Part shown: positions 1-20,834 of the stretch, one piece after another | How the letters are laid out: the number at the start of each line of letters is the position of its first letter | Numbering within the stretch: position 1 is the first letter of the stretch | From: Henriciella sp. | GTDB taxonomy: Bacteria > Pseudomonadota > Alphaproteobacteria > Caulobacterales > Hyphomonadaceae | Assembly (NCBI RefSeq): GCF_012960415.1 | Contig: NZ_DUBH01000043.1 | Span: 513-64,512, forward strand | Length of the DNA: 64,000 bases | Direction of reading: 5' to 3' | Made by a program: the position numbers and the translations under genes | The notes under the pieces: model-generated | Database searches by the model: none | What the model was told of the DNA's origin: nothing | The model's input: the letters and a program-made list of their open reading frames with translations, nothing else

Positions 1-468
1 TTCGGGGCGATCGACGGAATCTTCCACACCGCCGGTGTGGTTTCGGACGAACTCATCCAGTTGAAGGTCGACGCGGACATCGAGCGCGTCTTCGGCCCCA
101 AGATTGGCGGCCTCGAAGCTCTCATCTCTCAGCTCGATACAAGCCAGCTCAAGACCGTGGTTTTCTTCTCATCGGTCGCCGCCCGTTACGGAAATGCAGG
201 CCAGGCCGACTACGCCATGGCAAACGAAATCCTGAACCGCATGGCCTGGTGGCTGAAATCGGCCAATCCGGCCGCCGCGATCACCTCCATAAACTGGGGC
301 CCTTGGGATGGCGGCATGGTGGACGAGGGCCTCCGCGCCAAATTCGCAGAGCTTGGCGTCCCGCTGATCTCCAAGTCCGCCGGGGCGAACGCTTTTGCCG
401 ATGCAGTTCTCGCAGGTGCCGCCTGCCCCGTAGAGCTCGTCGCAGGTGCGGAGATCGCGCATGTCTGA
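1..468 (+). CDS. 3' end of a PfaA-like PKS/PUFA-synthase subunit (ketoreductase domain C-terminus); the 5' end lies upstream of the window
   Basis: Frame 1 is open from nt 1. The translation GAIDGIFHTAGVVSDE...VVFFSSVAARYGNAGQADYAMANE...INWGPWDGGMV matches the catalytic S...Y..AN region of type I PKS KR domains. The TGA at 466-468 overlaps the next gene's ATG (461) by 8 nt. Confidence 0.8.
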   Translation, partial: FGAIDGIFHTAGVVSDELIQLKVDADIERVFGPKIGGLEALISQLDTSQLKTVVFFSSVAARYGNAGQADYAMANEILNRMAWWLKSANPAAAITSINWGPWDGGMVDEGLRAKFAELGVPLISKSAGANAFADAVLAGAACPVELVAGAEIAHV

Positions 469-3400
469 GCCGAAATTCGACCCGATCGCCATTGTCGGGC
501 GCGGCTGCGTCCTCCCCGGCGCGCTTACCCCTGCCGAACTCTGGCAGGCCGTGCTTGAGGAAAGGAGCCTCATCACCGATGCCCCGCCGGGCAAATGGGG
601 CGTCACCGACGCCGAGCAGCAGGCCCTCGGCTACAAAGGCGCCTTCGTCACCGGCTTCGACAAAGTCTTCGACGCCGCCGCCCATGACCTCGGTGACATC
701 GACGCCGCAGATCTCGACCCAGTCTTTCAGTGGCTGCTGCATGCGGGCCGCGAAGCCTGGCGCGAAGCCGGACAGCCCAAGGCTCGAAAAAACCGCATCG
801 GCGTCATCGCTGGCAATCTCGGCTATCCGAGCCGCGCCCTCTCTGACTTTGCCGCAGACATCTGGCTGGACGGCACCTCGGGCATCCACCCACAGAACCG
901 TTTCAACACAGGCGGCCCTGCGCAGCTTCTTGCCCGCTCGCTTGGCGCGGCCGGACCGGCCTTCGCCATAGATGCAGCCTGCGCCTCCTCCCTCTATGCC
1001 ATCAAGCTCGCCTGCGACCGCCTGCAGGATCACAGCCTCGATATCGTCGTCGCGGCAGCCGTAAATGGCGCGGACAATCTCATTCTCCATCAGGGCTTTT
1101 CAGCCCTCAACGCGCTCTCACCGACAGGCCGCTCACGGCCATTCGTGGAGGGTGCAGATGGCCTTGTCCCGGCAGAAGGTGCCGCCGCCATCGTTCTGAA
1201 ACGCCTGTCAGACTGCGACCTCGCAGACCGAGTCTTCGGCGTCATTCGCGGCATCGGCCTTTCCAATGACGGGCGCCGCAAATCCCTTCTCGCGCCAGAC
1301 GGCGAAGGCCAGCGCGAAGCCATGGACGCCGCATGGGCAGGCGCGGGCCTCGACCCGTCACGCGACATCGGGCTCGTCGAAGCCCATGCCACAGGCACAC
1401 GCACGGGCGATGCCGTCGAGCTATCTGCCACCGCCGCCCATTTCCAAGGCGTAGACGGCCTCCCCATCGGGTCGCTCAAAGGCAATCTCGGCCACCTCAT
1501 CACGGCCGCTGGCATGGCGAGCCTCATCAAGCTCATCTTCACCGTCAATGAAGGCATCATCCCCCCGACGCGGCTTGAGGGCGATGCTATCGCGGGCTTT
1601 GGCGGCAGCCCGCTTACCCCCGCCCGGCACGGCCAATGGCCGGACGGCCGCCCACGCATCGCCGCCCTCTCCAATTTCGGCTTTGGCGGCAACAATGCCC
1701 ATCTGATCCTCGCCGCCGATGACGGCCACCGCGCCCGCCGAAAGGCCGCGAAGCCCGATCAGAAGCCGCCCCATATCGCCATCACCGCCACCGGCCTCTC
1801 CCTTGGCCCGGATCGCGGCGTCGCCCGCGTGGTTCAACGCCTGATGCGTCCGCCAAAGGATGCGCGCGGCGCGATGACAGAGACCCATGCCGACCCGAAA
1901 GCCCTACGCGCGCCGCCCTCGGATCTTTCTTCAGCGCAGGGCCAGCAGGTCGCGCTCTGGGACGCCGTTGACGAAGCCCTTGCCCGTTCGTCCCTCCCGG
2001 ATGGCGCGCGCGTCGGCGTCTACACCGGTTTCAGCTGCTCGCCCGAAGCGACCCGCTGGATGCTCCGTGCACGGATTTCAGAGCGTCTGGGACTCAACCC
2101 AACATCGCCAGAAGCTGACGCCGCCCGCAACTCCATCGCCGCGCCGCTGAAAGCTGGCGACGTCCTCGGCGCCATGCCGAATGTGTCTGCCAACCGGCTG
2201 AATGTACGCGGCGACTGGCGCGCGCTCGGCTTTGCGGTGATGGAGGAGGAAGCTTCTGGGCTTCGCGCCACAGAGCTCGCGATCCGCGCCCTTCAGGCGG
2301 GCGAGATTGACGCCGCCATCGTTGCTGCAGCCGACCTGTCCAGCGATGTGGTTCACACCGCCACGAGCAGCGCGCGCACAGGTGACGCCGCCGCCGCCGT
2401 CATCCTGCAGCGCAGCGTCGACGCCCCTTCGGCAACCAAAATCCGAGCGCTCCGCATTCAAGCGGGCCAGGCGCCCAATGCCCTCATCTCCCGCATCTAC
2501 GGCCATGCCCATGCGGCGGGCAGCCTCGTCGAGCTTGGCTTGCAGTCCGAAGCCGCCGCGCGCGGGCTGGAGCTTACCAACACGGGCCTCATCCCGCGCC
2601 TCGACAATTCAGCCACTCGCCCGGCTGTGGCAGGTGCTGCCGTCATACTGAAGACGCGCCCGCAACCCTCGCCAGACCTGCTGCGCCCGCCGCCGCTGCT
2701 CGAAACATACGGCGCCGACAGCCGCGACGCGCTCATCGCCTGTCTCGAAGCCCAAGAACAGGCCAGCGACGGCAGCCACCGCGTCGCTCTGCTCGCCTCC
2801 CGCCCGGAAGAGATGACGGCCCTTCGCCTCGAAGCTGCATCGCGTCTTCGTTCAGGCAGACTTGAAAGCGGCGAAGGCATCCATTTCGGTGAGGGCGCGC
2901 CAAAGGGCGATCTCGCCTTTGTATTTACCGGCGCGGCGGCTGCCTATCCCGGCATGGGGCGCGATCTCTTCTCTGCCTTCCCGTCCCTTGGCAAGCTTGT
3001 CGCCCAGCGTTTCCCGGCGGCTCAATCTGTTGCCGATACGTTGGCCACAGGCCTTGAAAGCGCCTTCAGCCAGCTGCGCGCCACCACGCTTGTCTCGCAG
3101 GCCCAGCATCTGCTCCTGACGAAGAAGCTTGGTCTCAACCCGACCGTCGCGATGGGTCTGTCATCCGGCGAGACCAATTCGCTCATCGCCTTCGGCGCAT
3201 GGGTCGATGCTGACGGGCTCATGGGAACGATTGGCGAAAGCGGCATGTATGATCGCTACCTCGCAGGCGCGTTTGAAACCGCCCGCAAGGCGTGGGGCGA
3301 GAAAGCCCAGATCGACTGGGAAACCTGGCGTCTGCGCAACAGCGAGGCCGCTGTGCGCGATGCAATCAAGCCTGAGCCGCGCTGCGACATTACCATCATC

Positions 3401-6400
3401 TACAGCGCCAGCGATGTCGTCATCTCTGGTGAGGCAGCCGCATGCCAGCGCGTCATAAAGCGGCTCGGCGCGGCGGCGATACGGGTCCCGCATGACCTTA
3501 CCGTGCACACCCCTGCCATGCTGCCCTATGAGAAGATCTGGCATCAGCTTCATTTCCGCAAGACGAAAGCGCCGAAGGGCGTGCGCTTCTACGCCAACGC
3601 CATAAACGGCGCGTACTATGTGTCCGCCGACAGCGCCGCCAACATGCTGACAGGTCAGGCCATCGCGCCAATCGATTTCCCGGCGACTCTCCGCGCGGCG
3701 CATGCCGACGGGGTAAGGACCTTCATCGAAATCGGCCCTCGCGATACGCTCACCGGAGCCATTCAGGAAACGCTTGGGGCCTCTGTCACAGCCCTGCCAG
3801 TAGACCGGTTCGGCACGCCCGCTCTCGACAGTATCGCCGCCCTCACCGCTCGCCTCTTCGCCGAAGGGCACGCCCTCAATGTCGACTGGCTGAAGGTACA
3901 GCTAGGTGAGGCTAGCGCCAACACACTGCCATTGCGGGTGAAAGACAGAAGCGCAGTTACCTTCGATGCGCATGTCCCGCCGCCGCGCCTGCCACAGCTT
4001 CCATCTGGCGCTTCGCACACGGCCCGCCGCCGTCTCTCTCCACCCAAGCGGCCATCCTTCAGTCCCGGTCCGCTCCCGCCAGCAAAACCTGCTCGCACGC
4101 GAACAATTCCACTGCCGCCCGGCACAAGCTGGGTCCCGCCCGTGGTGAAGACAGTTGGGACGACCGTTCTGGAGCGGACTCGAGCGGCAACGGCGACGAT
4201 GCCTGCAGCCGTGCCGACACCACCAACCGCACCCAAACCGAACCCCGCCAGGCGCATCACGCCTGCGTCGGCGGAAGCCCGTAGATCTATCACGCCGCTA
4301 GAGCGCAGGACGCCAACAGGCCCCTCCTTCACCCGGGCTCAGATCGAAGAAGCCGCGGTCGGCAACATCTCGGATGTCTTTGGCGAAGCCTTCGCCGCGC
4401 AGGACAAATTCCGCCGTCAGGTCCGGATGCCGCGCCCGCCCATGCTGCTCTGTGACCGGATTACCGGCATCGACGCAGACGCGCTTGTCCAGGGAAAGGG
4501 CACGATCTGGACCGAAACCGACGTCACTGCAGACCTATGGGCGGTCAGCGACGGCATGCTGCGTCCGGGCCCCTTGATCGAAGCGGGGCAGGCAGACCTT
4601 GCGCTCATCTCATGGATGGGCGCTGATATGCTGAACTGCTCGGACCGCGTCTACCGCCTGCTCGGCTGCGAACTTACCTTCCACGAAGGCGGCCTGCCGC
4701 GCGTTGGAGAGACATTGCGCTTCCAGATCTCGATCAAGGGCCATGCAGAGCTATCCGGCGTGCGCATGTTCTTCTTCGAATATGACTGCTATGCTGACGA
4801 GCGCCTGCTTCTGTCTGTTCGCAATGGGCAGGCAGGCTTCTTCACTGATGAGGAACTCGCCAACTCCAAGGGCGTGCTCTGGGACGCCAGCGAAGGCGCG
4901 CCGACGGCAGACCCGCGCCTCGACAAGACGTCGCCGACAAGCAAGCACAGCTTCAGCGCCGCCGAAGTCGCCGCCTTCCGCGCTGGCGACACCTATCGCT
5001 GTTTCGGCGAAGGGTTTGAGCGCGCGGCCCCGCACACGCGCCCTGCCCGCCTGCCAGCTGGCAAGCTCTCACTGTTCGATGATGTGGCCGAGTTCGATCC
5101 CACCGGCGGCCCTTGGGGTCGCGGCTATCTCAAGGCCCGCCACCGCGTCGCCAAACACGCCTGGTTCTATGATGGCCATTTCCATGAAGACCCGTGCATG
5201 CCCGGCACGCTCATGGCCGAGGCGGCTGTTCAGGCGCTTGAATTCACCGCCGCAGGACTTGGCCTCACCATTGAGCGCGACAGCCATGTCTTCGAACCGG
5301 CACCGGGCGCGTCTGCGACCTTCTACTGCCGGGGTCAGGTGACGCCCGATGAGGACCACGACATCACCTATGAAGTCTTCGTCGATGAAGTGATCGACGG
5401 CGAAGAACCCATGGTCTTCGCCAGCCTCCTTGCGCGCTCTGATGGCCGAAAGGTCTTCTACTGTCCGCGCTTTGGCGTCCGCCTTCGCCGCCAATGGCCA
5501 GACCAGCCAAAAGCCTCCGCACCGCCCCACTATGTGAATACTGATTGCGACGTGCGCGGTGATGAAGCGGCCCTCATGGAATGCGGCTCTGGCGCGCCAA
5601 GCAACGCCTTTGGCAGCATGTATGCGCCCTTCGACACCAAAGGCGCTGTCCCCCGCCTACCGCAACCGCCCTACCACATGGTCAGCCGTGTCCTGTCCGT
5701 TTCTGGCCCTGCTGGCCAGCAGTCGGCAGGCCTGAAAGCTGTTGCCGAATATGATGTCCCACCAGACGCTTGGTATTTCGAGGATGGCGGCACCGGCAAC
5801 ATGCCTTTCAGCGTGCTGACCGAAGTCATTCTGCAACCCTGTGGTTGGCTCGCTTCCTATTCGGGCTTTGCCCTGTCCGGTGAGACGCGCTTCCGCAATC
5901 TCGATGGCAGCGGCAAGCTTCACCGCCAGGTTCGCCCCGGCGATGGCATGGTCCGCACAACGACAACGCTGACCCGATGCTCGCGCGTTGGGCCGATGAC
6001 CATCGTCTTCTTCGCGCTCGAAGCCACGCTCGCTGATGGCACACCCATCATCTCGCTGGAGACGATCTTTGGCTTCTTCACCAAAGCGTCACTCGCCGCG
6101 CAGGCAGGCCTCAAGCCAACCGACACAGATCGCGACTTCGTCAGCGCGCCAGCCGACCCACCGAGCGAGGACGGCACGCGCCTTCAGGCCTCCCGCAACC
6201 GGCTTGCGCTGTTTGATGTCATCGACCGGTTCGAACCAGAAGGCGGTAGCGCCGGTCTTGGCCAGATCCGCGCCCGGCAGGCCGTCGATCCCTATGCCTG
6301 GTATTTCAAGGCGCACTTCTTCTCTGACCCGGTCCAGCCCGGCTCACTCGGCCTCGACATGCTGGTTCAGCTTCTCGCCCGCGCCGCTGACCTCAAAGGT

Positions 6401-7786
6401 CTCGCAGAGCGGTTCGAGCACCCTGTCTGGGAGCCGATTGCAGAAACCAATGAGGTAAACTGGGCCTATCGCGGCCAGGTCATGCCCACGGCGAAACAGG
6501 CGACCCCGATGGTCGAGATTCTTTCGGTCGAAGAGCACGATGACGCGACCATCGTGAAGGGGCGCGGCGTGCTCTGGGTCGATGGGCTGAAAATCTATGA
6601 GATGCGCGAACTAAGCGTCCGGATATGCACCGCCCATACACCGTCAGTGCACCGCCACTGCACCATGTTTTCTGCTGGAAACGAGGGCTGGCTCCAGTCG
6701 CATCGTCCAACGCATACCCTCCCCGCGCTCCCGCTTCTGGCGCAGGCCGGAATGGCTCTGCAGCAGGCGAGAGCGGCAGGCTTCGAAGGCTACCCGATTG
6801 AACTGAAAGCGTTTTCGCCAAAACGCTGGGGCAGTTTGAGTGCTGAGGGCCTCAGCGTAGAGGCCAGGGTAACACCAGACGGCGACGCAAAACTGCGCGG
6901 CCGCGATGCCCTCTGTGGCGACGCCCCCTGGTACGAAATTTCCGCCGGAAAGATTAGCCAGCCCGTTCGGGGGCCAAAGCCGAAACTCGGGCCCGAAAAA
7001 CATGGAAAAAAGCGTGCTGATCCCTATGCATCCGGCGACCTTTTCCACGGGCCCGCCATGCAGCCCGTCATCTCCATGCACCGTGACGCAAAGGGCTTCG
7101 AAGCTATTCTGGACCTTTCCGCCGCCATTCATCCCGGGGACCCGTTCGACCCGGTCATACTGGACGGCCTCGTCCATGGCCCGCCGCACGAAACGCCTGA
7201 AGAATGGTTCGAGGGCGCGGAAAACACTGCCATCTACCCCGTCCGGATCGACCGCCTGATTGTGCTCAGCGCCCTTCCGGAAAACGGCAAAGTCACCGTC
7301 AGGGGTCGTCCGCAATCACGACCGGAAGGCTCTGATGAGCTACCCGTCCTGATCGAGGCCTATCTTGAAGACGGCACGCTCTGGGCGCGGCTGGACCTCA
7401 TCGAGAAAGCGTATCCGAAAGGCAAGCTCGGCGCGCTCAACCCACTGGCAAGAAAGGCTTTTCTGACGGGCGCAAATGACGAGGTGGTCGCGCCGCTCAG
7501 CTGGCAGGGAGGCGAGCGCAGCCTCGTCGCGCCCGCCGACGTGATGGCGTGCGACTGGCTGCCCGGCACTGTCGCCGCCGCCTGGGGGCTGAATGGGCTA
7601 ACGGGCGCAGATCTCATCAAAGGCGTTGCCGTGAAGGAATTCTTCGCCCGCAAATGGGGTATCCATCCGCAAAAGTTGACGCTGGACCCACCTTTCGTCA
7701 TCGGCCCAAACGCCCGCAGCCGTTACGATCTGCGCTTCGATACCGCCGCGCGCGCCTGGTCTGTCGGAGATGATCCCCATGGATAA
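461..7786 (+). CDS. PfaC-like multidomain polyketide/PUFA synthase subunit, KS - CLF - AT - linker - FabA-DH - FabA-DH - PKS-type DH-like region
   Basis: A single 7.3-kb ORF. Motifs in order: KS (DAACASS with Cys codon 980-982, EAHATGT, NFGFGGNNAH); a CLF-like second KS without the Cys (VMEEEASG); AT (AMGLSSGE with Ser codon 3161-3163); a Pro/Arg/Thr-rich linker (~3970-4330); FabA-type DH (GHFHEDPCMPG, His 5177-5179); a second FabA-type DH (AHFFSDPVQPGSLGLD, His 6314-6316); and a PS-DH-like tail (YASGDLFHGPAMQP, LDGLVHG). ATG 461 (MSEPKFDPIAIVG) is preferred over GTG 446. Confidence 0.9.
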   Translation: MSEPKFDPIAIVGRGCVLPGALTPAELWQAVLEERSLITDAPPGKWGVTDAEQQALGYKGAFVTGFDKVFDAAAHDLGDIDAADLDPVFQWLLHAGREAWREAGQPKARKNRIGVIAGNLGYPSRALSDFAADIWLDGTSGIHPQNRFNTGGPAQLLARSLGAAGPAFAIDAACASSLYAIKLACDRLQDHSLDIVVAAAVNGADNLILHQGFSALNALSPTGRSRPFVEGADGLVPAEGAAAIVLKRLSDCDLADRVFGVIRGIGLSNDGRRKSLLAPDGEGQREAMDAAWAGAGLDPSRDIGLVEAHATGTRTGDAVELSATAAHFQGVDGLPIGSLKGNLGHLITAAGMASLIKLIFTVNEGIIPPTRLEGDAIAGFGGSPLTPARHGQWPDGRPRIAALSNFGFGGNNAHLILAADDGHRARRKAAKPDQKPPHIAITATGLSLGPDRGVARVVQRLMRPPKDARGAMTETHADPKALRAPPSDLSSAQGQQVALWDAVDEALARSSLPDGARVGVYTGFSCSPEATRWMLRARISERLGLNPTSPEADAARNSIAAPLKAGDVLGAMPNVSANRLNVRGDWRALGFAVMEEEASGLRATELAIRALQAGEIDAAIVAAADLSSDVVHTATSSARTGDAAAAVILQRSVDAPSATKIRALRIQAGQAPNALISRIYGHAHAAGSLVELGLQSEAAARGLELTNTGLIPRLDNSATRPAVAGAAVILKTRPQPSPDLLRPPPLLETYGADSRDALIACLEAQEQASDGSHRVALLASRPEEMTALRLEAASRLRSGRLESGEGIHFGEGAPKGDLAFVFTGAAAAYPGMGRDLFSAFPSLGKLVAQRFPAAQSVADTLATGLESAFSQLRATTLVSQAQHLLLTKKLGLNPTVAMGLSSGETNSLIAFGAWVDADGLMGTIGESGMYDRYLAGAFETARKAWGEKAQIDWETWRLRNSEAAVRDAIKPEPRCDITIIYSASDVVISGEAAACQRVIKRLGAAAIRVPHDLTVHTPAMLPYEKIWHQLHFRKTKAPKGVRFYANAINGAYYVSADSAANMLTGQAIAPIDFPATLRAAHADGVRTFIEIGPRDTLTGAIQETLGASVTALPVDRFGTPALDSIAALTARLFAEGHALNVDWLKVQLGEASANTLPLRVKDRSAVTFDAHVPPPRLPQLPSGASHTARRRLSPPKRPSFSPGPLPPAKPARTRTIPLPPGTSWVPPVVKTVGTTVLERTRAATATMPAAVPTPPTAPKPNPARRITPASAEARRSITPLERRTPTGPSFTRAQIEEAAVGNISDVFGEAFAAQDKFRRQVRMPRPPMLLCDRITGIDADALVQGKGTIWTETDVTADLWAVSDGMLRPGPLIEAGQADLALISWMGADMLNCSDRVYRLLGCELTFHEGGLPRVGETLRFQISIKGHAELSGVRMFFFEYDCYADERLLLSVRNGQAGFFTDEELANSKGVLWDASEGAPTADPRLDKTSPTSKHSFSAAEVAAFRAGDTYRCFGEGFERAAPHTRPARLPAGKLSLFDDVAEFDPTGGPWGRGYLKARHRVAKHAWFYDGHFHEDPCMPGTLMAEAAVQALEFTAAGLGLTIERDSHVFEPAPGASATFYCRGQVTPDEDHDITYEVFVDEVIDGEEPMVFASLLARSDGRKVFYCPRFGVRLRRQWPDQPKASAPPHYVNTDCDVRGDEAALMECGSGAPSNAFGSMYAPFDTKGAVPRLPQPPYHMVSRVLSVSGPAGQQSAGLKAVAEYDVPPDAWYFEDGGTGNMPFSVLTEVILQPCGWLASYSGFALSGETRFRNLDGSGKLHRQVRPGDGMVRTTTTLTRCSRVGPMTIVFFALEATLADGTPIISLETIFGFFTKASLAAQAGLKPTDTDRDFVSAPADPPSEDGTRLQASRNRLALFDVIDRFEPEGGSAGLGQIRARQAVDPYAWYFKAHFFSDPVQPGSLGLDMLVQLLARAADLKGLAERFEHPVWEPIAETNEVNWAYRGQVMPTAKQATPMVEILSVEEHDDATIVKGRGVLWVDGLKIYEMRELSVRICTAHTPSVHRHCTMFSAGNEGWLQSHRPTHTLPALPLLAQAGMALQQARAAGFEGYPIELKAFSPKRWGSLSAEGLSVEARVTPDGDAKLRGRDALCGDAPWYEISAGKISQPVRGPKPKLGPEKHGKKRADPYASGDLFHGPAMQPVISMHRDAKGFEAILDLSAAIHPGDPFDPVILDGLVHGPPHETPEEWFEGAENTAIYPVRIDRLIVLSALPENGKVTVRGRPQSRPEGSDELPVLIEAYLEDGTLWARLDLIEKAYPKGKLGALNPLARKAFLTGANDEVVAPLSWQGGERSLVAPADVMACDWLPGTVAAAWGLNGLTGADLIKGVAVKEFFARKWGIHPQKLTLDPPFVIGPNARSRYDLRFDTAARAWSVGDDPHG

Positions 7787-8360
7787 TTTTGAGATCATCC
7801 CCGTTACCGACGCCACGCGGCCCTTGGTCCAGCACCTGCGCTACCGGGTCTATTGCGCCGAGAAGCAGTTCGCCATGAAGGGAGCCGACCATGAAAGCCG
7901 ACTGCTGCGTGACGATGCTGACCCGCTGGGCGAGACTTTCGCGCTTTTCGATGGGGCTGACCTTGTCTCCAGCGCGCAGGTCATCCCAGTCCATGCGAGT
8001 GAAGCAACTGAAAGATTTTGGGTTTTCGACCTTGGATCAGTCCTCGCCGAAGGAGAAAGCTGCGTCGTCGTGTCGAAACTGGTCACCGCTCCAGAACGGC
8101 GCGGCTCCAAGACGCTCGGCCCGGTGATGCGCGCTGTCCTCGACTATGTGGCCCGCAACAAGCACCGCTATATCGCCATTCTGGCCGAAGCACAGATGCG
8201 TGAGTTTTATGGATCGATGGGCTTCGATATCCGCAAGGAAGGCATAGAAGCGCCGCCCTTCGGCACTGTTTCGCTTATGGTTTTTGACATGCAGGACGAG
8301 CGTCACACCAGTGGCAGATCACTCGCCGGATGGATGTTCAAATCGATTTTTGCGCGCTGA
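7779..8360 (+). CDS. Small GNAT-fold acyltransferase resembling the FeeM / N-acyl amino acid synthase / LuxI-like acyl-ACP-dependent family
   Basis: 193-196 aa. The pattern LRYRVYCAEKQF...DxxD...ALFDG.DLVSSAQV...VVSKLVTAPERRG...FYGSMGF fits the N-acyl amino acid synthase / autoinducer-synthase-like GNAT layout. GGAGA (7766-7770) lies 8 nt upstream of ATG 7779. The alternative start is ATG 7770. The gene overlaps the PKS stop (7784-7786). Confidence 0.6.
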   Translation: MDNFEIIPVTDATRPLVQHLRYRVYCAEKQFAMKGADHESRLLRDDADPLGETFALFDGADLVSSAQVIPVHASEATERFWVFDLGSVLAEGESCVVVSKLVTAPERRGSKTLGPVMRAVLDYVARNKHRYIAILAEAQMREFYGSMGFDIRKEGIEAPPFGTVSLMVFDMQDERHTSGRSLAGWMFKSIFAR

Positions 8361-8997
8361 ACGCGGCCGTGCAAACCGCATCGGGGCCAGCGTCGATCAC
8401 CGTCAACATTAGCGACAAGCCGCGATCTTTAGTTTCGATTTCGTCCAGACGCCCCCGAATGAATTCCGACGGTATTTCAACGCTCTTCGCGCCGCCGCGA
8501 AGCCCCTCTCCCCGGCATTTCAGAACTGCTTCCTTTGCGGTCCAGAGACGATAGAAAGCGGCCAGCTGTGCCAGTTCCGTGCCCGCGGAAATGACGGCAT
8601 CGCTCTCAGCTGGGGAGGCCGTCATCGAGAGGATCGCGCTCGTCTCGCGCGGTATCAGCCGCTCGATATCGATGCCGATGCGGCTCACTTCAGACAGTGC
8701 CGCTGCCGCGATTGATCCCGACTTCGACCAGCTGATAGCGAGCTCAGGCGCGCCAACAAGCTCCGGGCGGGCGTCGTCATAACTCTGAAGAACAGGCGTT
8801 CCAGGCTGTGGCCGTTGCTGCTGAATAAGCTGCCGCATCAGCCATCTGGCATGCAGAAAGTCGGCAGCGTCGTCGCTACGTCTAAGCTTAGAAGCACGTG
8901 CTTTTTCGGCCTCGTCGGCAGGCTCAAAGCTATGCTGAACATCCCGCCTGTCAGAAATTGCCCAGACCGGGCCAGCAGCTACAGAGCCGCCGCGCAT
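8338..8997 (-). CDS. Sfp-type 4'-phosphopantetheinyl transferase (PfaE-like)
   Basis: Carries the GIDIERL and WTAKEAVLK motifs. The start is either ATG 8997 (2 nt after the sigma gene's stop) or TTG 9003 (4-nt overlap). The 3' end overlaps the convergent GNAT gene by 23 nt. Confidence 0.85.
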   Translation of the reverse strand: MRGGSVAAGPVWAISDRRDVQHSFEPADEAEKARASKLRRSDDAADFLHARWLMRQLIQQQRPQPGTPVLQSYDDARPELVGAPELAISWSKSGSIAAAALSEVSRIGIDIERLIPRETSAILSMTASPAESDAVISAGTELAQLAAFYRLWTAKEAVLKCRGEGLRGGAKSVEIPSEFIRGRLDEIETKDRGLSLMLTVIDAGPDAVCTAAFSAQKSI

Positions 8998-8999
8998 GA

Positions 9000-9611
9000 T
9001 CAAATGGGGTGCTGGGCTGGTCCTGCCAATTCATCGAGCCGATGAAGCAGCGCTGGAAGCCCCTGCCCCTCAGGGCGCTTGACGGCATAGGATGAACGCT
9101 CGCTCGACACGAAACGCCGTTTCACGGTTTCACGCGCGCGGCTGACGCGGCTCTTGATCGTGCCTGCCGAGCAGCCACAGACCTCTCCGGCCTCATCATA
9201 GGTCATGCCTGCAGCGAGGATAAGGATCAGCGCGTCGCGCTGGTCGTCTGGTAGCTGGCTGATCAGCCGCTCCATCCGTGCAAAATCCTTGGCTGTTTCT
9301 TGGTGAGCTTCGGCGACGAGAGCCGCAGCGATCACATCTGGCTCCAGATTGACCGAGCGCCAGGATCGGCGCTTCTGCATGTAGAATTCGTTGCGCAGGA
9401 TTCTGAATAGCCAAGGACGCATCGGCTGGTCCGGCTCAAACATTTCCTGCGAGCTCCACGCCTTCAGGCAGGTATCCTGTACGAGATCGTCTGCGAGCGC
9501 GGCGTCGCGGCACAAACCTCTCGCAAAGGCTCTGAGCTCTGGAATCAGGGCTTCGAGGCGGGCGACGAAGGACGCTTCTATTTTCTCAACCAAACCACCC
9601 AACTCCAACAC
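9000..9611 (-). CDS. ECF sigma factor, EcfG-like (general stress response type)
   Basis: Region 2 reads RAFARGLCRDAALADDLVQDTCLKAW...RPWLFRILRNEF. Region 4 reads DQRDALILILAAGMTYDEAGEVCGCSAGTIKSRVSRARE. A NepR-like gene lies immediately upstream. Confidence 0.85.
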   Translation of the reverse strand: MLELGGLVEKIEASFVARLEALIPELRAFARGLCRDAALADDLVQDTCLKAWSSQEMFEPDQPMRPWLFRILRNEFYMQKRRSWRSVNLEPDVIAAALVAEAHQETAKDFARMERLISQLPDDQRDALILILAAGMTYDEAGEVCGCSAGTIKSRVSRARETVKRRFVSSERSSYAVKRPEGQGLPALLHRLDELAGPAQHPI

Positions 9612-9635
9612 GCGCGGGCCGGCTTTTGCCGTGCC

Positions 9636-9878
9636 TCAATCTCGTTTGTTTTCCTGCTCGCGCAGGCGCCGGATCAGATCCTGCAGCCGCTCAGGAACTG
9701 GCTCTTCAGCCACGTCCCGATAAGCCTTTCGCAGGGCTTCACCGACAGGCGGTTCCTTCATCCAGGGTGATGGCGATTTGCGGCCTTGCGCCGGCGACGA
9801 TTTCTTCTTGGTCAAAATTTCGTCCCGGCGATAGAAAATCAGGTCCGCTCTGGTGCCACACACCCCTTCAAGTCGCAA
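9636..9878 (-). CDS. nepR: NepR-family anti-sigma factor
   Basis: Small ORF 24 nt upstream of the ECF sigma gene. The C-terminal VGEALRKAYRDVAEEPVPERLQDLIRRL matches the conserved NepR sigma-binding helix as I recall it. The start is uncertain; an internal ATG lies at 9761. Confidence 0.65.
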   Translation of the reverse strand: MRLEGVCGTRADLIFYRRDEILTKKKSSPAQGRKSPSPWMKEPPVGEALRKAYRDVAEEPVPERLQDLIRRLREQENKRD

Positions 9879-10027
9879 CTATGCCTAATGCCATCTAACA
9901 TTCATTTTCCTAATCGCTTTCTAAATTCAGGTGAAAACTTCTGCCTTTCGCGCAGTTGCGCTGCATCAACTGCCGGGCCGGGACCGACGCTGCACATGTC
10001 GGAACTGTAAATTGCGCGAAGAAAGCG

Positions 10028-10052
10028 GAAACATAACAACGTCGACGACGTT
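10028..10052 (+). promoter_or_regulatory. Candidate EcfG-type promoter (GAAAC-N16-CGTT) overlapping a 17-bp palindrome, ~105 nt upstream of tamA
   Basis: GAAAC at 10028-10032, a 16-nt spacer, and CGTT at 10049-10052. This is one mismatch from the GGAAC-N16/17-CGTT consensus. The palindrome CAACGTCG-A-CGACGTTG spans 10037-10053. Confidence 0.3.
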
Positions 10053-10156
10053 GAATTTCAGTGCATTCAACATATCGCTTAAGTGAAGTCGTCGGCGTCC
10101 CAGGGCAGCCGCTGTCGATAGCGGTGTAGAGTTGTTGCCTAGCGAGCCAGGGACTG

Positions 10157-11923
10157 ATGATTAATCGACTTACCTTCTTTCTTGTCGCCGCCCTGGCGAT
10201 GGCAGCATCTGCTGCCGCAGAGAAAGTTGATATCGAGTTCGCAGGCGACAGGCCGAACGGTGAATTACGGTCAGTTCTTCAGAATGCCCTCGCCGATGAA
10301 AGCACGCCGCAGACAGCGCTGGAGGCGCGCCGGCAGGGAAGGCGCGCGGCCGAAGCGGTCCGCAGCGCGCTGAACAGCGAAGGCTATTACGACCCCCAGA
10401 TCGACCTCGCTGTGCTGGGCACGGACGCACCAGAGGCCCGGCTGCGGATCGATACGGGCCCTCGCTTCGCGCTTGGCAGGGTAAAGGTCTCATTCGTTGG
10501 CACGAGCCCCACCGAAGCCGATCAGGATCTGATCCGGAACGGCCTACCTGTTCGCGCGGGGCGCCCTGCTATTCCGGCGGATGTGATCGATGCGGAACGC
10601 TGGATCACGAACGAGCTGCGCAATGCCGGCTATCCCTATGCCGAAGTGGACGAACGCCGCGTCATTGGAGACCGCGACGCAGAAACGCTAAGCGTCACCT
10701 ATGAGACCCGCACTGGCCCGCGCGTCGTCTTCGGCGAGACCCGCTTTCCGAACGAGAAGATGAAGACAAAGGCGAGCTATCTCGACCGGCTCATTCCCTA
10801 TGAGGCGGGCGAGGTTTACGACCCTGCCGCGCTTTCCCAGTTCAACACACGGCTTGCCGAAACGCGCATGTTTAAGGTGGCGCGCGCCGACCTCACGAAC
10901 GAGCCGTCCGGTGAAACAGAAGACGGGCAGGAAATCCGCGATGTGGTCGTGACCCTGACCGAGCGGCCTCAGAACTCGATCGGGCTCGGCGGCAAGTACT
11001 CGACCAGCGAAGGCTTTGGTCTCAATGCGGAACTCACCCGCCGCAATCTGACCCGCCGCGGCGATGTGCTGAGCGCCGACCTCACTGTGGCCGAGCTTGA
11101 GCAGTCTTTGGAAGTTATCTGGCGCCGCCCGAATGAGTTCGGCTATGGCCGCGGGCTCGTTCTTTCGGCGGGCGTCAAGAATGAAACGACCGACGCCTAT
11201 GACCGTCAGGCGGTTTTCGCAGGCGTCGGCTTTGAAGTCGTCCGCAGTCCCGAGTTCACCTATTCCTATGGTGTACAGGGCGAAATCGCGAAAGAAGAAG
11301 ACGAGTATGGCGAGCGCGACCTTCAGATCGTCTCCGTCTATGCCGACGCCCGCCTCGACAAGACTGACAGCCTGCTCGACCCGCGCTCAGGCTGGCGGGC
11401 TAACGCACGGGTCGAACCAAGTTATGCCTTTGGCGACGAGGTCAGCCCGTACGTGCGCTCGGTTGGCCAGATTAGCGCCTATGTGCCCTTTGACGAGGAC
11501 AGGAAGTTTGTCCTTGCCGGGCGTTTCAAGGCGGGGGCTGTTGTGGGCGCCGATGTCGAGAATCTGCCCGTCGATACGCGCTTCTATTCTGGTGGCGGCG
11601 GCAGCGTGCGCGGCTATGCCTATCAGGCGATTGGGCCGCGCGCCGATGATGGCACGCCGCTTGGCGGCTCATCCGTCATTGAAGCCTCGATCGAGGGGCG
11701 TTATGCCGTGCGGCCGAACATCGGCGTGGTGGCCTTCCTCGATGCAGGGGCTGTCTCGACCAGCCAGTTCTCCGATTTCAGCGATGCGCGCTATGGCGCC
11801 GGCGTCGGCGTGCGCTACACCACGCCCGCAGGCCCGATCCGCCTTGATTTGGCGACACCGCTGAACCCCACAGATTTTGACGACCCGGTCCAGATCTACA
11901 TCTCGATCGGTCAGGCCTTTTAA
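10157..11923 (+). CDS. tamA: TamA, Omp85-family outer-membrane translocation and assembly module protein
   Basis: Has a signal peptide (MINRLTFFLVAALAMAASAAA), POTRA-like repeats, and a C-terminal Omp85 barrel (RFYSGGGGSVRGY ... IYISIGQAF, ending in Phe). It is followed by tamB with a TAATG overlap. Confidence 0.85.
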   Translation: MINRLTFFLVAALAMAASAAAEKVDIEFAGDRPNGELRSVLQNALADESTPQTALEARRQGRRAAEAVRSALNSEGYYDPQIDLAVLGTDAPEARLRIDTGPRFALGRVKVSFVGTSPTEADQDLIRNGLPVRAGRPAIPADVIDAERWITNELRNAGYPYAEVDERRVIGDRDAETLSVTYETRTGPRVVFGETRFPNEKMKTKASYLDRLIPYEAGEVYDPAALSQFNTRLAETRMFKVARADLTNEPSGETEDGQEIRDVVVTLTERPQNSIGLGGKYSTSEGFGLNAELTRRNLTRRGDVLSADLTVAELEQSLEVIWRRPNEFGYGRGLVLSAGVKNETTDAYDRQAVFAGVGFEVVRSPEFTYSYGVQGEIAKEEDEYGERDLQIVSVYADARLDKTDSLLDPRSGWRANARVEPSYAFGDEVSPYVRSVGQISAYVPFDEDRKFVLAGRFKAGAVVGADVENLPVDTRFYSGGGGSVRGYAYQAIGPRADDGTPLGGSSVIEASIEGRYAVRPNIGVVAFLDAGAVSTSQFSDFSDARYGAGVGVRYTTPAGPIRLDLATPLNPTDFDDPVQIYISIGQAF

Positions 11924-14900
11924 TGAGCACCACTGATCCAGCTCCAAGCCAGCCCGCCCAAAAGCGGAGCCTGACCCGCCGCCTTCTGAAATGGACGGCG
12001 ATTGGGCTCGGCGTGCTGCTGGCGCTGATCATTATCCTGATACTCGCAGCTCGATATGCCGCGCAGTCCGCCTTTGGCCGCGAATTCGTCGAGACCCGGA
12101 TCGAAGCGGCGGACCCGTCCGGTCAGGAGATTGAGGTCGAAGGCCTGTCAGGTGACCTACTTGGCACATTCCGGATCGAGCGGCTTACCGTCGCCGATGA
12201 GGACGGTGTCTGGCTGATCGCGGAAAACCTCCTCGCCGACTGGAAGCCGTTTGACCTGCGCCGGCGGGCGCTGACGATCGAAGCGCTGGAAGCGGACCTC
12301 ATTCATGTCCTGCGCCGCCCTATCCTGCAGCCTTCCGACCGCGAAACTTCTTCGGGCGGCTCCATGCCACTGCGCGCAGGCGAGCTTGGGCGCCTGCGCA
12401 TTGGAGAGCTGCGAACTGATGAAGGCGTCATTCCACGCCCGCTATCGCTGAATATCGAAGCTCAGGGCCGGATTGGCCGCGACGGCGGGCGCACCGAAAT
12501 GGCGGTCGTCCCGCTGGATGGTAATGGCGATGAACTGCTCGCAGACCTCACCTGGTCAGACGATTTCCGGGTTCAGGGCAATCTGGAGCTCGAAGGCCCC
12601 GCCGGCGGCCTGTTTGCGAGCCTTGCCCGCCTGGACCCGGACCAATCGATCTCTGCTACGCTGGACACACAAGGCGCGCTGAATGACTGGCAGGCCGATG
12701 CAGACATCGAAATTGGCGACTCGTCGCTCATCATGCTCGATGCTGAGGCGCGCGAGCAGGTCATCAGCTTTCAGTCAGATATTCAGCCAGCGCTGCACCC
12801 GTTGACGCGAAGGATCGCAGATACGCTTGGCGAAACCCTCTCGATTGAAGGTGACCTGTCGCGCGGCGAAGGGGGCCCGTCGCTTGACGTCACTGCTATC
12901 GCCGAAGGCCTGGAGCTGAGCGCGATCGCCCAGCAGAGCGAAGAGGGCGGCTACCGCGCCGACCTGCGGCTGACAGCGGACAATCCGACCCGCTATACCA
13001 ATGTCGAGAACGTATCTGTCGGCGAGGCCATGCTGGACGGCGTGCTTGTCTATACGGATGGCACGGCGCGCTTTGACGGCGATGTTCGGGCGTCTGGTGT
13101 TGATGTACCATCCTTTGCCGCTGACACTGTATCCGGACCGATGACGGCCATCTATGGCGACGGCCGTGCGAGTGTACGCACCACGCTGACCGCAGCGGGT
13201 GCAAACCTGCCAGGTATGAGCGGACAGATCGCAGGTCGCGCGCCGGTGCTCGTGCTGAATGGCGACTACAATATCGCAGACCGGACCATCGAACTTCGCG
13301 AGACGGTTGTGCGAGGTCGCGCGGGCCGTATCGCCGCCCAGGGCGATATCGCCTTGTCGCCTTCGCTGAGCGCCAATGTCTCTGGCAGCTTCCAGCTTGA
13401 TGGCAGCGCCGCCAGCCTCGCCCGCCCGGTGAACCTTCAAGGTAATTTTGAAGCGAGCCGTGCTGGCGCTGGCGCGACCCGGTTCAATACGCAGATCAAT
13501 GCGAGTGAGCTTGGTGCCCTGCCTGCCCCGTTGAGCGACTGGGCATCGGACGCCGCCTTGCTCAATGTAAACGGCGTGCTGCAGCCAGACAATGCCGTGG
13601 ATCTCAACCAGATTTCGCTGGAAAGCGGGACGTTATCACTCAATGGATCGGGCCGGCTCAGTAGCGAGCAGGCCATATCGGCGTCGCTGCACCTGCAGGC
13701 GGGCGAAGCGAATGTGGCAGGCTATGCGCTTGAGAGCGTGAGCGGGCGCGCTGACGTTTCCGGTACGCTGGACGCGATGGATTTCGTGGTGAACTTCAAT
13801 GCGCCGCAGCTTGCGAGCGAAAGCCTCACCTTCACAGATATCGGCCTTGGCGCGGACGGCACCTATGGCGGCGGCGCGCTGAACGCATCCGTTTCGCTAG
13901 GGGCCGGGACGACGAATGGACCGCTCGACGTTCAGACCGGTGTCGCCCTCAACGGGTCTGACTGGCGAGTTGAGGGGCTTGAGGCGAGCTGGGGTCCGCT
14001 AGCTGCGAACGCGACCGTCAGCGGCTCGGGTGGTAAGTTCGGCGCGATACGCGGCGAAGCGAATGTTCGCGGCGACCTGCCGGAAGGGCTGCCTGCCCGA
14101 CGCGTTGATGCCAGCGCTTTCATCGAAGGCGAGGCGCTGACGATTGATGCAACGCTGGAAGAAGTCGCCGCCGGGCCGACCCGCGCAGACGCTCTCGTCA
14201 TCCGCGCGACAGGTACGCCAGATAATGCCGACTTCATCGTCGAAATGGATGGCAGCACCGAGGTCGACGGCCTTTCCTATCGCACGCTCTTGAATGTCGA
14301 CGGCAATGTCAGCGGGCTGATCAGCGGCGCAATGGAGCTGACCGCGGGCCTCGACGCAAGCCTTGGCGACCTGACATTAGTGACGCAGGAACCGCTTCGC
14401 TACGCCTCGTTCGAAGACGGGATGGAAGTGTCGACAGAATTTGCAGCGCTTGGCGGCTCGCTATCAGCCAGCCTGACCACACGGGGCGACACACAGTTGC
14501 GGGCGTCGGCAGGCGGGCTCGAAGTCGCGCCCCTCCTGGTCCTCCTTGGTCGCCCCGCACTTGATGGCGCACTGGACCTGTCGCTGGCCTTCGATGAAGC
14601 AGCCGAAGGCGGACTGAGCGGTCCCATCGAAGCAGAGATGCGCGGTGTCTCGCGCCCGGGCTCAGACCTTCCACCAGTGAATTTGTTCGTGAGGGGCACG
14701 CTGCAGCCTGAACTCCTCGATCTGGTGCTCCGTGCTCTCGACAATGAAACGCTCGAAGCCCGCGCGGCGATTGAAGTGCCTGTGAACACGTATGAAAGCG
14801 CGCCATTCATACAGCCCGTTTCTGGCGCCAGCATGCCCTTCTCCGCCAATGCCAGCGGCCAGATCGAAGCGATAGCTGCGCTGTTTATCCCGCCGCAAAT

Positions 14901-16125: not shown

Positions 16126-17012
16126 AGCTCGCCTTTGAGACGGCGCATCACGCCGGAAAAATCGATATCGCCGAAGCCGTCTTCATCCAGCTTCGCATAG
16201 ATCTGCTGAGCGTGATTGCCGAGCGGCGTATCGGCCCCGACATCATCGCCCGCACCCATGGCAAGCCGCAGATCCTTCAGCATCATGGCGACCGCGAAGC
16301 CCGGCTTGTAGTCGCGGTTCGATGGCGCGGTCGGCACAGGCCCTGGCGCCGGGCAATAGCTGGTCATGGACCAGCACTGCCCGGACGCGGTGGACGAGAT
16401 GTCGTAGAAAGTCTGCGCATCGAGACCGAGCTTTTCAGCAAGGTTGAACGCCTCGCAGGTGCCGATCATGGAGATGCCGAGCAGCATGTTGTTCGCGATC
16501 TTCGCGACCTGTCCGTTGCCCGGATCGCCCGCATGGAAGACATTCTTGCCCATGACGTCGAGGATCGGCTTTGCCTTCTCGAACCCGTGCTTTGGGCCAC
16601 CCACCATGAAGGTCAGCGTGCCTGCCTCGGCAGCGGCAACACCACCCGACACCGGTGCGTCCATATAGGAAAAGCCCGCTTCTGCGGCTTTCCCGGCAGC
16701 ATCGCGCGCCTCTTCGACGGCGATAGTCGAACAGTCAAGGAAAAGCGTGCCCGGCTTTGCGTGTGCCGTCACACCACCCTCACCGAAATAGACCTGATGG
16801 ACATGCTTGCCCGCTGGCAGCATGGACACCACGACGTCGACATCGCTCACCGCCTCGCCGACAGTGGCAGCGGCCTTTGCTCCTGCCGCGACAGCGGCTT
16901 TCACCGCATCTCCGTTAAGATCGAAGGCGTGCACCTCATGTCCCGCCTTGGCGAGGTTTGCGCACATGCCGGAGCCCATATTGCCAAGGCCAATGAATGC
17001 AATCTTCGTCAT
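16122..17012 (-). CDS. mmsB: 3-hydroxyisobutyrate dehydrogenase
   Basis: Rossmann N-terminus MTKIAFIGLGNMGSGMCANL, overall HIBADH-family pattern, and a valine-catabolism operon context. Confidence 0.85.
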   Translation of the reverse strand: MTKIAFIGLGNMGSGMCANLAKAGHEVHAFDLNGDAVKAAVAAGAKAAATVGEAVSDVDVVVSMLPAGKHVHQVYFGEGGVTAHAKPGTLFLDCSTIAVEEARDAAGKAAEAGFSYMDAPVSGGVAAAEAGTLTFMVGGPKHGFEKAKPILDVMGKNVFHAGDPGNGQVAKIANNMLLGISMIGTCEAFNLAEKLGLDAQTFYDISSTASGQCWSMTSYCPAPGPVPTAPSNRDYKPGFAVAMMLKDLRLAMGAGDDVGADTPLGNHAQQIYAKLDEDGFGDIDFSGVMRRLKGEL

Positions 17013-17027
17013 GGTGAGATCTCCTCC

Positions 17028-19192: not shown

Positions 19193-19228
19193 GGACTTAA
19201 CCCTCAAAATCTAGGACTTGGGTCAGAC

Positions 19229-20725: not shown

Positions 20726-20786
20726 ACGGCTTTCTCCCATATCTATCTGGCGGCAGTTTATCTTTGGCGCACACGCAGTTAAACAC

Positions 20787-20817
20787 GCACATATGCAGGT
20801 TTAACCTGCATATGTGC
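20787..20817. promoter_or_regulatory. 31-bp perfect palindrome (15-bp arms), candidate LysR-type operator in the mmsA / lysR divergent intergenic region
   Basis: GCACATATGCAGGTT-T-AACCTGCATATGTGC was read directly and only the central base breaks the symmetry. It contains T-N11-A type cores. It lies 18 nt upstream of the regulator's GTG and 62 nt upstream of the mmsA ATG. Confidence 0.6.
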
Positions 20818-20834
20818 AGCCAAGGACAAGCCCC

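Follow-up and report, generated by a model that had tools for sequence, protein, structure and literature searches.

A FeeM-type GNAT gene overlaps a Pfa-type megasynthase gene in Henriciella and is a candidate amide-forming exit for a secondary lipid synthase

In a 64,000-nucleotide stretch of DNA from Henriciella sp. (contig NZ_DUBH01000043.1; the whole of it is hereafter called the window), the gene of a 193-aa protein of the GNAT fold overlaps the 3' end of a polyketide synthase (PKS) gene. This PKS is a subunit of a Pfa-type synthase, resembling those of polyunsaturated fatty acids (PUFAs). Our analysis indicates that the GNAT is probably a dedicated component of the Pfa-type iterative fatty acid synthase (FAS)/PKS. 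On balance, we favour the interpretation that it releases the finished acyl chain onto an amine, which would give an N-acyl amide lipid of an undescribed kind. Product release by PUFA-type megasynthases is still debated, with the PfaB acyltransferase (AT), discrete thioesterases and AGPAT as candidates, and the exit step sets the lipid class of the chain. The features at this gene junction are as follows.

7779..8360, plus strand: gene of a 193-aa FeeM-type GNAT N-acyltransferase, proposed to terminate (off-load) the chain
7766..7770, plus strand: Shine-Dalgarno-like GGAGA inside the 3' end of the PKS gene, 8 nt before the GNAT ATG, read from the sequence
461..7786, plus strand: PfaBC-like megasynthase subunit (the PKS), 2441 aa, with ketosynthase (KS), chain-length-factor (CLF), AT and dehydratase (DH) domains in the order KS-CLF-AT-(pseudoDH+FabA DH)x2-PKS-type DH, from Pfam/NCBIfam

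The open reading frame (ORF) of the GNAT runs from an ATG at 7779-7781 to a TGA at 8358-8360. Since the PKS stop codon TAA lies at 7784-7786, 8 nt are common to both ORFs (ATGGATAA). An earlier note on this DNA had described an ORF of ~193 aa with an 8-nt overlap at the PKS stop and a GGAGA of its own, all of which we read in the sequence, and the GGAGA has the same letters in the orthologous locus L001. Every GNAT motif quoted there is likewise present in the 193-aa translation, namely residues 20-31 (LRYRVYCAEKQF), the acidic stretch D45-D46-A47-D48, residues 97-109 (VVSKLVTAPERRG) and residues 143-149 (FYGSMGF). Residues R21, D48, G109 and W185 of the GNAT are invariant. An alternative in-frame ATG at 7770, giving 196 aa, was rejected as the start because 18 homologues in alignment A1 begin at the M1 position (MDN/MSE...). 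At its other end, the PKS truly starts at the ATG at 461, not at the mechanical GTG at 446, and so overlaps by 8 nt the stop TGA (466-468) of a ketoreductase (KR) gene (ATGTCTGA). The KR/PKS (461-468) and PKS/GNAT (7779-7786) junctions thus have one overlap design of 8 nt, ATGnnnTGA/TAA; in other lineages the PKS/GNAT junction shows ATGA overlaps of 4 nt. With 8-nt overlaps at both junctions, KR, PKS and GNAT are thus three genes in a single, tightly coupled row. Scans of 7000-10300 for promoters and terminators and against Rfam gave nothing above chance. The GNAT ORF is a real gene, with a FeeM match in Pfam, homologues of conserved length (n=36), a low dN/dS and a confidently predicted fold. 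It is under purifying selection, dN/dS against eight Henriciella orthologues being 0.04-0.18.

Close homologues of the GNAT all come from Henriciella (Hyphomonadaceae, Alphaproteobacteria), with H. algicola as the best genome match (96% for the GNAT), and the PKS-GNAT order was found in 9 Henriciella genomes and in locus L020. Taken alone, synteny within Henriciella is uninformative, because the whole neighbourhood, including the TamAB and valine catabolism genes, is collinear. In the more distant Henriciella loci L005-L008, identity was 69-72% for the GNAT, 67-70% for the PKS and 40-44% for the 4'-phosphopantetheinyl transferase (PPTase) encoded next to the GNAT; the GNAT is thus conserved to the same degree as the PKS, and the PPTase much less so. 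The linkage was also found in eight lineages outside Henriciella (P0187, P0193, P0194, P0192, P0037, P0190, P0186 and P0185), on contigs of 64-72% GC, with GNATs only 28-49% identical to the window GNAT or to one another. In these, the GNAT ORF opens 4-8 nt ahead of the stop codon of a PfaC/PfaBC-like gene, whose alignment with the window PKS continues to the last residues of the latter. The other flanks differ, with, e.g., peptidase S8, a Na+/alanine symporter or prepilin peptidase downstream, and a convergent PPTase follows the GNAT in half of the eight lineages (4/8). No subfamily member without an adjoining PKS was seen in the contexts read, a comparison that ends before the next-closest relatives (P0046 onward, E 1e-16 to 1e-10).

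Full fusions of the two proteins were found as well. Two proteins from metagenomes, P0213 (2686 aa; contig of 436 kb) and P0215 (2642 aa), carry KS-CLF-AT-DH-DH-PS-DH-GNAT on a single polypeptide, and P0041 and P0195 are fragments with the same PfaBC-GNAT fusion architecture. These fusions nest in one of two GNAT subclades, beside stand-alone members at 54-66% identity. Hence the linkage to the PKS, whose conservation the earlier note had proposed to examine, holds far beyond the genus, in eight lineages and in the fusions. A survey of 80 metagenomic loci with split-KR relatives found the GNAT in L020 only. In an exhaustive profile search, 1.84 billion representatives contained 379 matches at E<=1e-3 and only 9 at E<=1e-30, which makes the subfamily very rare.

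The end of the PKS that adjoins the GNAT carries an extension.

6632..7783, plus strand: C-terminal extension of the PKS, aa 2058-2441, with a PKS-type double-hotdog dehydratase fold and a helical subdomain of ~100 aa

In the window this extension (the C-terminal 384 aa) has no Pfam match; the equivalent extension in fusion P0041 matches PKS_DH_N and PS-DH. Its AlphaFold2 model (pLDDT 85.7) had as top Foldseek matches the DH domains of AlnB, CurH, CurJ and GphF (TMt 0.70-0.76, ~280 aa). A thioesterase or AGPAT hidden in the unannotated C-terminus was rejected, as the region folds as a PKS dehydratase, and Pfam matched no PP-binding, AGPAT or thioesterase domain in the 2441-aa PKS. The premise of the earlier note that neither a thioesterase nor an AGPAT is present is therefore sound, with no match to PF01553 or to a thioesterase and with the C-terminal 384 aa accounted for by a dehydratase fold.

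Such a PS-DH-like extension of ~385 aa is found in every GNAT-linked PKS. Sixteen PfaC-like proteins with visible gene ends do without it and stop 2-14 residues past the second FabA-like dehydratase. It also occurs in many AGPAT-terminated relatives. L088 and L043 continue after this extension with an AGPAT (PF01553), the alignment holding through window PKS residue ~2410-2435, and seven of nine other C-terminal tails tested carry AGPAT. PF01553 stands at the equivalent position in L088, L043, L027, L031, L039, L048 and P0197-P0212, and the tail of L045 has it before PS-DH. The sequences in the database that come closest to the extension belong to AGPAT-terminated proteins, e.g., from Pyrinomonadaceae and Polyangiaceae. 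In myxobacterial Pfa3, the chain-terminating acyl transfer is attributed to the AGPAT domain (PMC8436480). As the AGPAT-terminated relatives share the extension, the GNAT therefore holds the slot of a known off-loading acyltransferase in this clade and looks like a swap for AGPAT; the comparison strengthens the premise that AGPAT and thioesterase are missing here.

The helical subdomain of ~100 residues (window ~7480-7783, PKS aa ~2340-2441) comes after the PS-DH fold and directly before the terminator, and the DH structures in the PDB do not cover it. It is conserved (e.g., DWLPGT...VAVKE...HP) in GNAT-linked and in AGPAT-terminated relatives, and because it is common to both terminator types it may be an adaptor or docking element.

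The family of the GNAT was assessed from HMM (hidden Markov model), structure and profile comparisons. It matched Pfam FeeM (PF21926) with 48.4 bits against a gathering score of 27, residues 18-162 falling on model positions 3-149 of 158, and its homologues also carry precomputed PF21926 matches. As for other Pfam models, Acetyltransf_9 reached 26.3 bits (cut-off 25), and Acetyltransf_5 and Acetyltransf_7 stayed under cut-off. The AlphaFold2 model (mean pLDDT 90.9) has GNAT topology, and its four best Foldseek matches in the PDB were the chains of FeeM 2G0B (TMq 0.69-0.73, TMt 0.72-0.75), at 13-16% identity in the structural alignment; FeeM matched over its full length and had the highest two-way TM scores of all (0.71-0.75). 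After FeeM, the matches mix generic GNATs and the N-acylhomoserine lactone (AHL) synthases BjaI, RpaI, LasI and MesI. A single-sequence search of the PDB gave no matches. Profile searches found the AHL synthases TofI and BjaI as remote matches (E 1e-6 to 3e-3) over the full length, whereas generic GNATs matched over the C-terminal half only. In view of these HMM, Foldseek and PDB profile rankings, we kept the label FeeM-type, which is supported, and reduced LuxI-like to a resemblance of fold. Thus, of the label FeeM/LuxI-like given in the earlier note, the first half stands (48.4 bits, 2G0B as best fold) and the second does not (no PF00765 match at E<=10). That note had also pointed out that its off-loading interpretation would fall if family and fold led to small-molecule acetyltransferases or if synteny with the PKS failed. 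Both comparisons have now been made, and neither overturns the interpretation, which is supported: the best HMM and the best structural neighbour are FeeM, and synteny with the PKS extends well outside Henriciella.

Membership in four related groups was tried and rejected. For LuxI-type AHL synthases, Autoind_synth (PF00765) was absent among the Pfam matches even at E<=10. For the OlsB type, PF13444 gave 20.8 against 22.4, and the NCBIfam OlsB model NF052554, which is the best NCBIfam match of the GNAT, remained far under its cut-off (26.7 against 350). The model of PEP-CTERM/exosortase-associated N-acyl amino acid synthases (TIGR03694) reached 19.3 bits (cut-off 111.95), with a match confined to the N-terminal 45 residues. 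GNATs of PKS loading modules (CurA/GphF) would be expected N-terminally, next to a loading ACP; the window domain has its place at the C-terminus of the final subunit, and no CurA or GphF GNAT was among the top 50 Foldseek matches.

With regard to the acyl donor, the window GNAT has ERRGSK in place of the canonical CoA P-loop [QR]xxGx[GA], a motif that its subfamily does not conserve. A non-canonical P-loop is described as typical of GNATs that depend on a carrier protein, including FeeM and SbzI, and catalytic and acyl carrier protein (ACP)-contact residues of FeeM include His145 and Phe148 (PMC11685415, the structural study of SbzI). The absence of the P-loop is suggestive of a carrier protein, rather than CoA, as donor but does not decide the matter. 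An invariant C-terminal motif, [KR][ST]LAGW[ML][FY], marks the subfamily and is missing from the wider family. Distant FeeM-like relatives occur as fusions (P0055, P0060, P0068, P0064, P0167, P0106 and P0138) that include cyclic-nucleotide-binding domains, FAAL-ACP (P0064, P0167) and AGPAT (P0106, P0138); with FAAL-ACP, an acyl carrier again stands beside a FeeM-like domain.

The remaining parts of the synthase in the window are as follows.

1..468, plus strand: pfaA2-like stand-alone KR, partial 3' end (last ~150 codons), stop TGA 466-468; the frame-1 translation is the KR tail (YGNAGQADYAMANE)
2906..3850, plus strand: PfaB-type AT domain of the PKS, aa ~816-1130, by Acyl_transf_1 and TIGR02816 pfaB_fam, with the GxSxG serine intact
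8338..9003, minus strand: Sfp/AcpT-type PPTase (PfaE-like), Pfam ACPS 4.9e-14

In L001, the full-length KR orthologue (469 aa) matches Pfam KR at 4.8e-35 and covers positions 1911-2268 of the PfaA model TIGR02813. The PKS matches ketoacyl-synt twice, Acyl_transf_1 once and FabA three times in Pfam, and NCBIfam pfaB_fam (TIGR02816) at aa 814-1093. Its catalytic motifs are intact (KS DAACASS with Cys174, AT GLSSG with Ser901, and the FabA-type His1573 and His1952). The PPTase gene is convergent with the GNAT gene and overlaps its 3' end by 23 nt; a convergent PPTase directly after the GNAT was also seen in L010, L016, L017 and L101. Its best NCBIfam matches, AcpT and HetI-type PPTases, were under cut-off. 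An exact-match look-up of the window PKS protein gave no record, and the parts of the cluster upstream of the window were therefore deduced from the orthologous loci L001, L018 and L020. In L020, the PfaD enoyl reductase matched TIGR02814 with 526 bits (cut-off 449) and PfaA1 (KS-MAT-ACPn) matched TIGR02813 with 1059 bits (cut-off 1010). The gene order there is PfaD, PfaA1, KR, PfaBC, GNAT, PPTase, and L001 and L018 agree with it. With the KR tail, KS-CLF-AT-FabA x2 and the PPTase in the window and PfaD and PfaA in L020, the cluster is, judged by its gene content, a complete Pfa-type (PUFA-synthase-like) secondary lipid synthase composed of pfaD, pfaA1, KR, pfaBC, GNAT and a convergent PPTase. 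The operon measures ~17 kb, of which the GNAT gene takes up 0.6 kb. The split pfaA and fused pfaBC resemble types D and H of Shulse & Allen 2011, and the layout is also like uncharacterised or Bacteroidetes-type 'secondary lipid' clusters in that catalogue (PMC3098273).

Based on these results, we propose the following course of events. The synthase would consist of the PfaD enoyl reductase, PfaA1 with KS, MAT and tandem ACPs, the PfaA2 KR, and PfaBC with KS-CLF-AT-DH(FabA)x2-DH(PKS), and a long acyl chain would be built on the ACPs of PfaA1. The GNAT, made in step with PfaBC via the 8-nt overlap, would bind the acyl-phosphopantetheine arm and catalyse the attack of an amine on the thioester; a free amino acid, through its alpha-amino group, is the most likely source of this amine. 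An N-acyl amide lipid would thereby be released and holo-ACP regenerated. The GNAT would be the functional counterpart of the C-terminal AGPAT, which ends synthesis by O-acylation in myxobacterial-type PUFA synthases. We infer that the donor is acyl-ACP and not acyl-CoA and that the acceptor is an amine or amino acid, and likewise the type of chain and product. More tentatively, it may be, with a chance that we rate as substantial and yet short of even, that Pfa-type synthases have a third termination logic, i.e., aminolysis by a built-in FeeM-type GNAT, beside hydrolysis or AT transfer and AGPAT O-acylation. The GNAT and AGPAT would then be interchangeable cassettes behind PS-DH and a helical adaptor, and long-chain, possibly polyunsaturated N-acyl amino acids or amines would be made on a megasynthase by marine Henriciella and several uncultured high-GC bacteria.

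Several points speak against release by the GNAT as a FeeM-type enzyme. The E-values of FeeM and of generic GNATs in the Foldseek search differ less than tenfold, which is a small margin, and profile searches of the PDB put generic GNATs (rice SNAT, SACOL1063, ElaA) above AHL synthases and FeeM, the latter reaching only E=2.8e-4 over 50 residues (FeeM residues 120-168). The P-loop criterion is weakly informative, the subfamily members P0037 and P0038 formally matching [QR]xxGx[GA] in register. The cluster has no conserved companion gene for amine supply or for export; the Na+/alanine symporter occurs only in the P0193 and P0194 lineages. Our literature searches gave no N-acyl amino acids or PUFAs in Henriciella, and we know of no reports of either. 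Finally, the PKS keeps an apparently active PfaB-type AT, with Ser901 intact, as a possible competing off-loader, a possibility overlooked in the earlier note. PfaB, reported to be a terminal acyltransferase/hydrolase, is implicated in off-loading in canonical systems (PMC12895367). Given the intact AT, the GNAT may not be the sole or main exit.

Lineages outside Henriciella differ from it on two of these points. In the L010 lineage, the PfaB-type AT is lost and the GNAT is retained; the GNAT-linked PfaC-like protein of L010/L011 (4081-10008) has 1975 aa and no PfaB-type AT, and the cluster has an unsplit KS-AT-ACP gene, a separate KR and, as in Henriciella, TamB nearby. A gene of the Na+/alanine symporter family (PF01235) follows the GNAT at a distance of 130-180 nt, in the same orientation, in L013 (10800-12242) and L098 (3229-4671), and the GNATs of the two symporter-bearing lineages (P0193, P0194) are 78% identical. 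This gene may be a hint, the only one found, to an amino acid as acceptor.

Among other explanations, the PfaB-type AT might off-load the chain, either hydrolysing it or handing it on to a different ACP or to CoA, and the GNAT would then carry out a later or parallel tailoring N-acylation with acyl-CoA or with acyl-ACP from the housekeeping FAS. This would be in line with the intact Ser901, with the reported role of PfaB as a terminal acyltransferase with hydrolase activity (PMC12895367), and with the presence of the CoA-dependent BjaI and RpaI, from the neighbouring LuxI family, among the structural matches. We nevertheless consider it unlikely: the L010 lineage lost the AT and kept the GNAT, the P-loop of the GNAT is non-canonical, and both the fusion to the megasynthase and the exchange with AGPAT at the same position favour action on the synthase's own ACPs.

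Alternatively, the GNAT might off-load onto an acceptor other than an amino acid, either a membrane or envelope amine (lyso-aminolipid, phospholipid head group, lipopolysaccharide, polyamine) or a protein lysine or N-terminus, so that the product would be a structural lipid or a lipidated protein. The lipid N-acyltransferases OlsB, OlsF and GlsB (PF13444) belong to the same GNAT branch and use acyl-ACP to N-acylate an amino acid. OlsB is the best, if far sub-cut-off, NCBIfam match, and distant relatives of the window GNAT are fused to AGPAT (P0106, P0138), as in bifunctional aminolipid synthases. Furthermore, the AGPAT whose place the GNAT takes supplies membrane lipid synthesis, and the subfamily-only motif [KR][ST]LAGW[ML][FY] suggests a distinct acceptor or docking mode. 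Yet the GNAT falls under both the OlsB (26.7 against 350) and the PF13444 (20.8 against 22.4) cut-offs, the cluster has no O-acyltransferase for a second step, and no conserved target gene adjoins it, which makes such an acceptor less probable still than tailoring behind an AT exit.

LuxI-type AHL synthases have a related fold and were matched over the full length by profile and structure (BjaI, RpaI, LasI, MesI, TofI). Many of them use acyl-ACP, and they form an amide bond to an amine derived from an amino acid. The N-terminal RYRVY...E and the DxxD motifs of the GNAT also, we presume, resemble those of LuxI enzymes. That the GNAT is an AHL synthase analogue, which would take S-adenosylmethionine as acceptor and make an unusual long-chain AHL from the Pfa product, is nonetheless very unlikely, as PF00765 is not matched even at E<=10, no LuxR-type gene was found in any context read, and FeeM is better by HMM and by fold. 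We give still less credence to a priming role, i.e., starter loading or decarboxylation of malonyl-ACP/CoA as by the GNATs of the CurA/GphF loading modules or by YiiD/MadA-like enzymes. PKS loading modules are known to contain GNAT-like decarboxylases that depend on a carrier protein (PMC11685415). The window GNAT, however, is located C-terminally, at the end of the last synthase subunit, where a loading domain would be N-terminal; it takes turns with a terminating AGPAT, has FeeM as best HMM and has no CurA or GphF GNAT among its top 50 structural matches. An unrelated housekeeping or resistance N-acetyltransferase that adjoins the PKS by chance, to which the lead of generic small-molecule GNATs in sequence-only PDB searches might point, is effectively refuted by synteny and fusions: the PKS overlap is invariant down to 28% identity in otherwise different neighbourhoods, full-length fusions exist, and this rare subfamily (9 at E<=1e-30 of 1.84 billion) was never seen away from a PKS in the contexts read.

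Release of an N-acyl amide by the GNAT, as favoured here, can be set beside several known systems. Like FeeM, its best structural neighbour, the window GNAT has ~190 aa on a single GNAT fold, passes the family HMM and has a non-canonical CoA P-loop, and its cluster likewise codes for a dedicated carrier protein. In contrast, the partner of FeeM is a discrete ACP (FeeL), whereas that of the window GNAT is a Pfa-type iterative megasynthase with tandem ACPs; identity is 13-16%, and the window subfamily has its own C-terminal motif and can be fused to the synthase. The myxobacterial AGPAT-terminated PUFA synthases (Pfa3, KS-CLF-AT-DH-DH'-AGPAT, and uncultured relatives) share the overall synthase, a homologous PS-DH-like extension and a terminator at the extreme C-terminus. 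They differ in that the PlsC-type AGPAT O-acylates lysophosphatidate, whereas N-acylation to an amide is predicted for the window GNAT; moreover, the window PKS has no PF01553, and in Henriciella the terminator has a gene of its own, which is translationally coupled. Canonical marine Pfa systems (pfaABCDE, with a PfaB AT or discrete thioesterase exit) have in common with the window cluster KS-CLF, AT, two FabA-type DHs and an adjoining PPTase, and the PfaD and PfaA models are matched in the orthologous cluster. However, the window PS-DH is at the end of PfaBC rather than on PfaA, a GNAT gene is added, and a PUFA, whether free or bound in phospholipid, is unlikely as the product.

The family assignment itself is not new, because a FeeM-domain label is already present in the public annotation of Henriciella proteins. 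No GNAT- or FeeM-terminated Pfa synthase, fusion or exchange with AGPAT was described in the literature covered by full-text searches and by look-ups of terms in the 2011 secondary-lipid and 2026 Pfa-hybrid surveys, a coverage that is incomplete and in which absence is not proof. If our interpretation is true, a FeeM-type N-acyltransferase wired to a synthase would give a new product class to the 'secondary lipid' clusters, which are widespread and mostly lack a known product. The N-acyl amides would be bacterial counterparts of endocannabinoid-like N-acyl amides, N-acyl amino acid synthases would gain a natural machine for long-chain donors, and a portable terminator cassette would become available for engineering amide lipids.

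Additional observations concern the genes around the cluster. Upstream of the PPTase gene, an extracytoplasmic function (ECF) sigma-factor gene overlaps it by 4 nt (9000-9003; region 8338-9611, minus strand), and the two genes are therefore probably co-transcribed. The sigma factor matches Sigma70_r2/r4 and PhyR_sigma2, and the extended ORF in L020 (19199-20635) adds a NepR anti-sigma motif. This arrangement hints that activation of the synthase ACPs may be under general-stress-response control. In the Henriciella metagenome-assembled genome L009 (4188-5305), the PPTase is missing between the GNAT (end 4766) and the sigma match (start 4832). Directly downstream of the cluster, at 10157-16125, lies a TamA (Omp85/POTRA) and TamB pair, which is collinear in all Henriciella loci. 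It is followed on the minus strand, at 16122-21731, by an apparent valine/isobutyrate catabolic operon with a divergent LysR regulator and genes for a 3-hydroxyisobutyrate dehydrogenase-like protein, an ECH_2 hydrolase, an acyl-CoA dehydrogenase and an aldehyde dehydrogenase. GC content is ~0.61-0.66 in the first 24 kb of the window and ~0.54-0.59 for 24000-64000.

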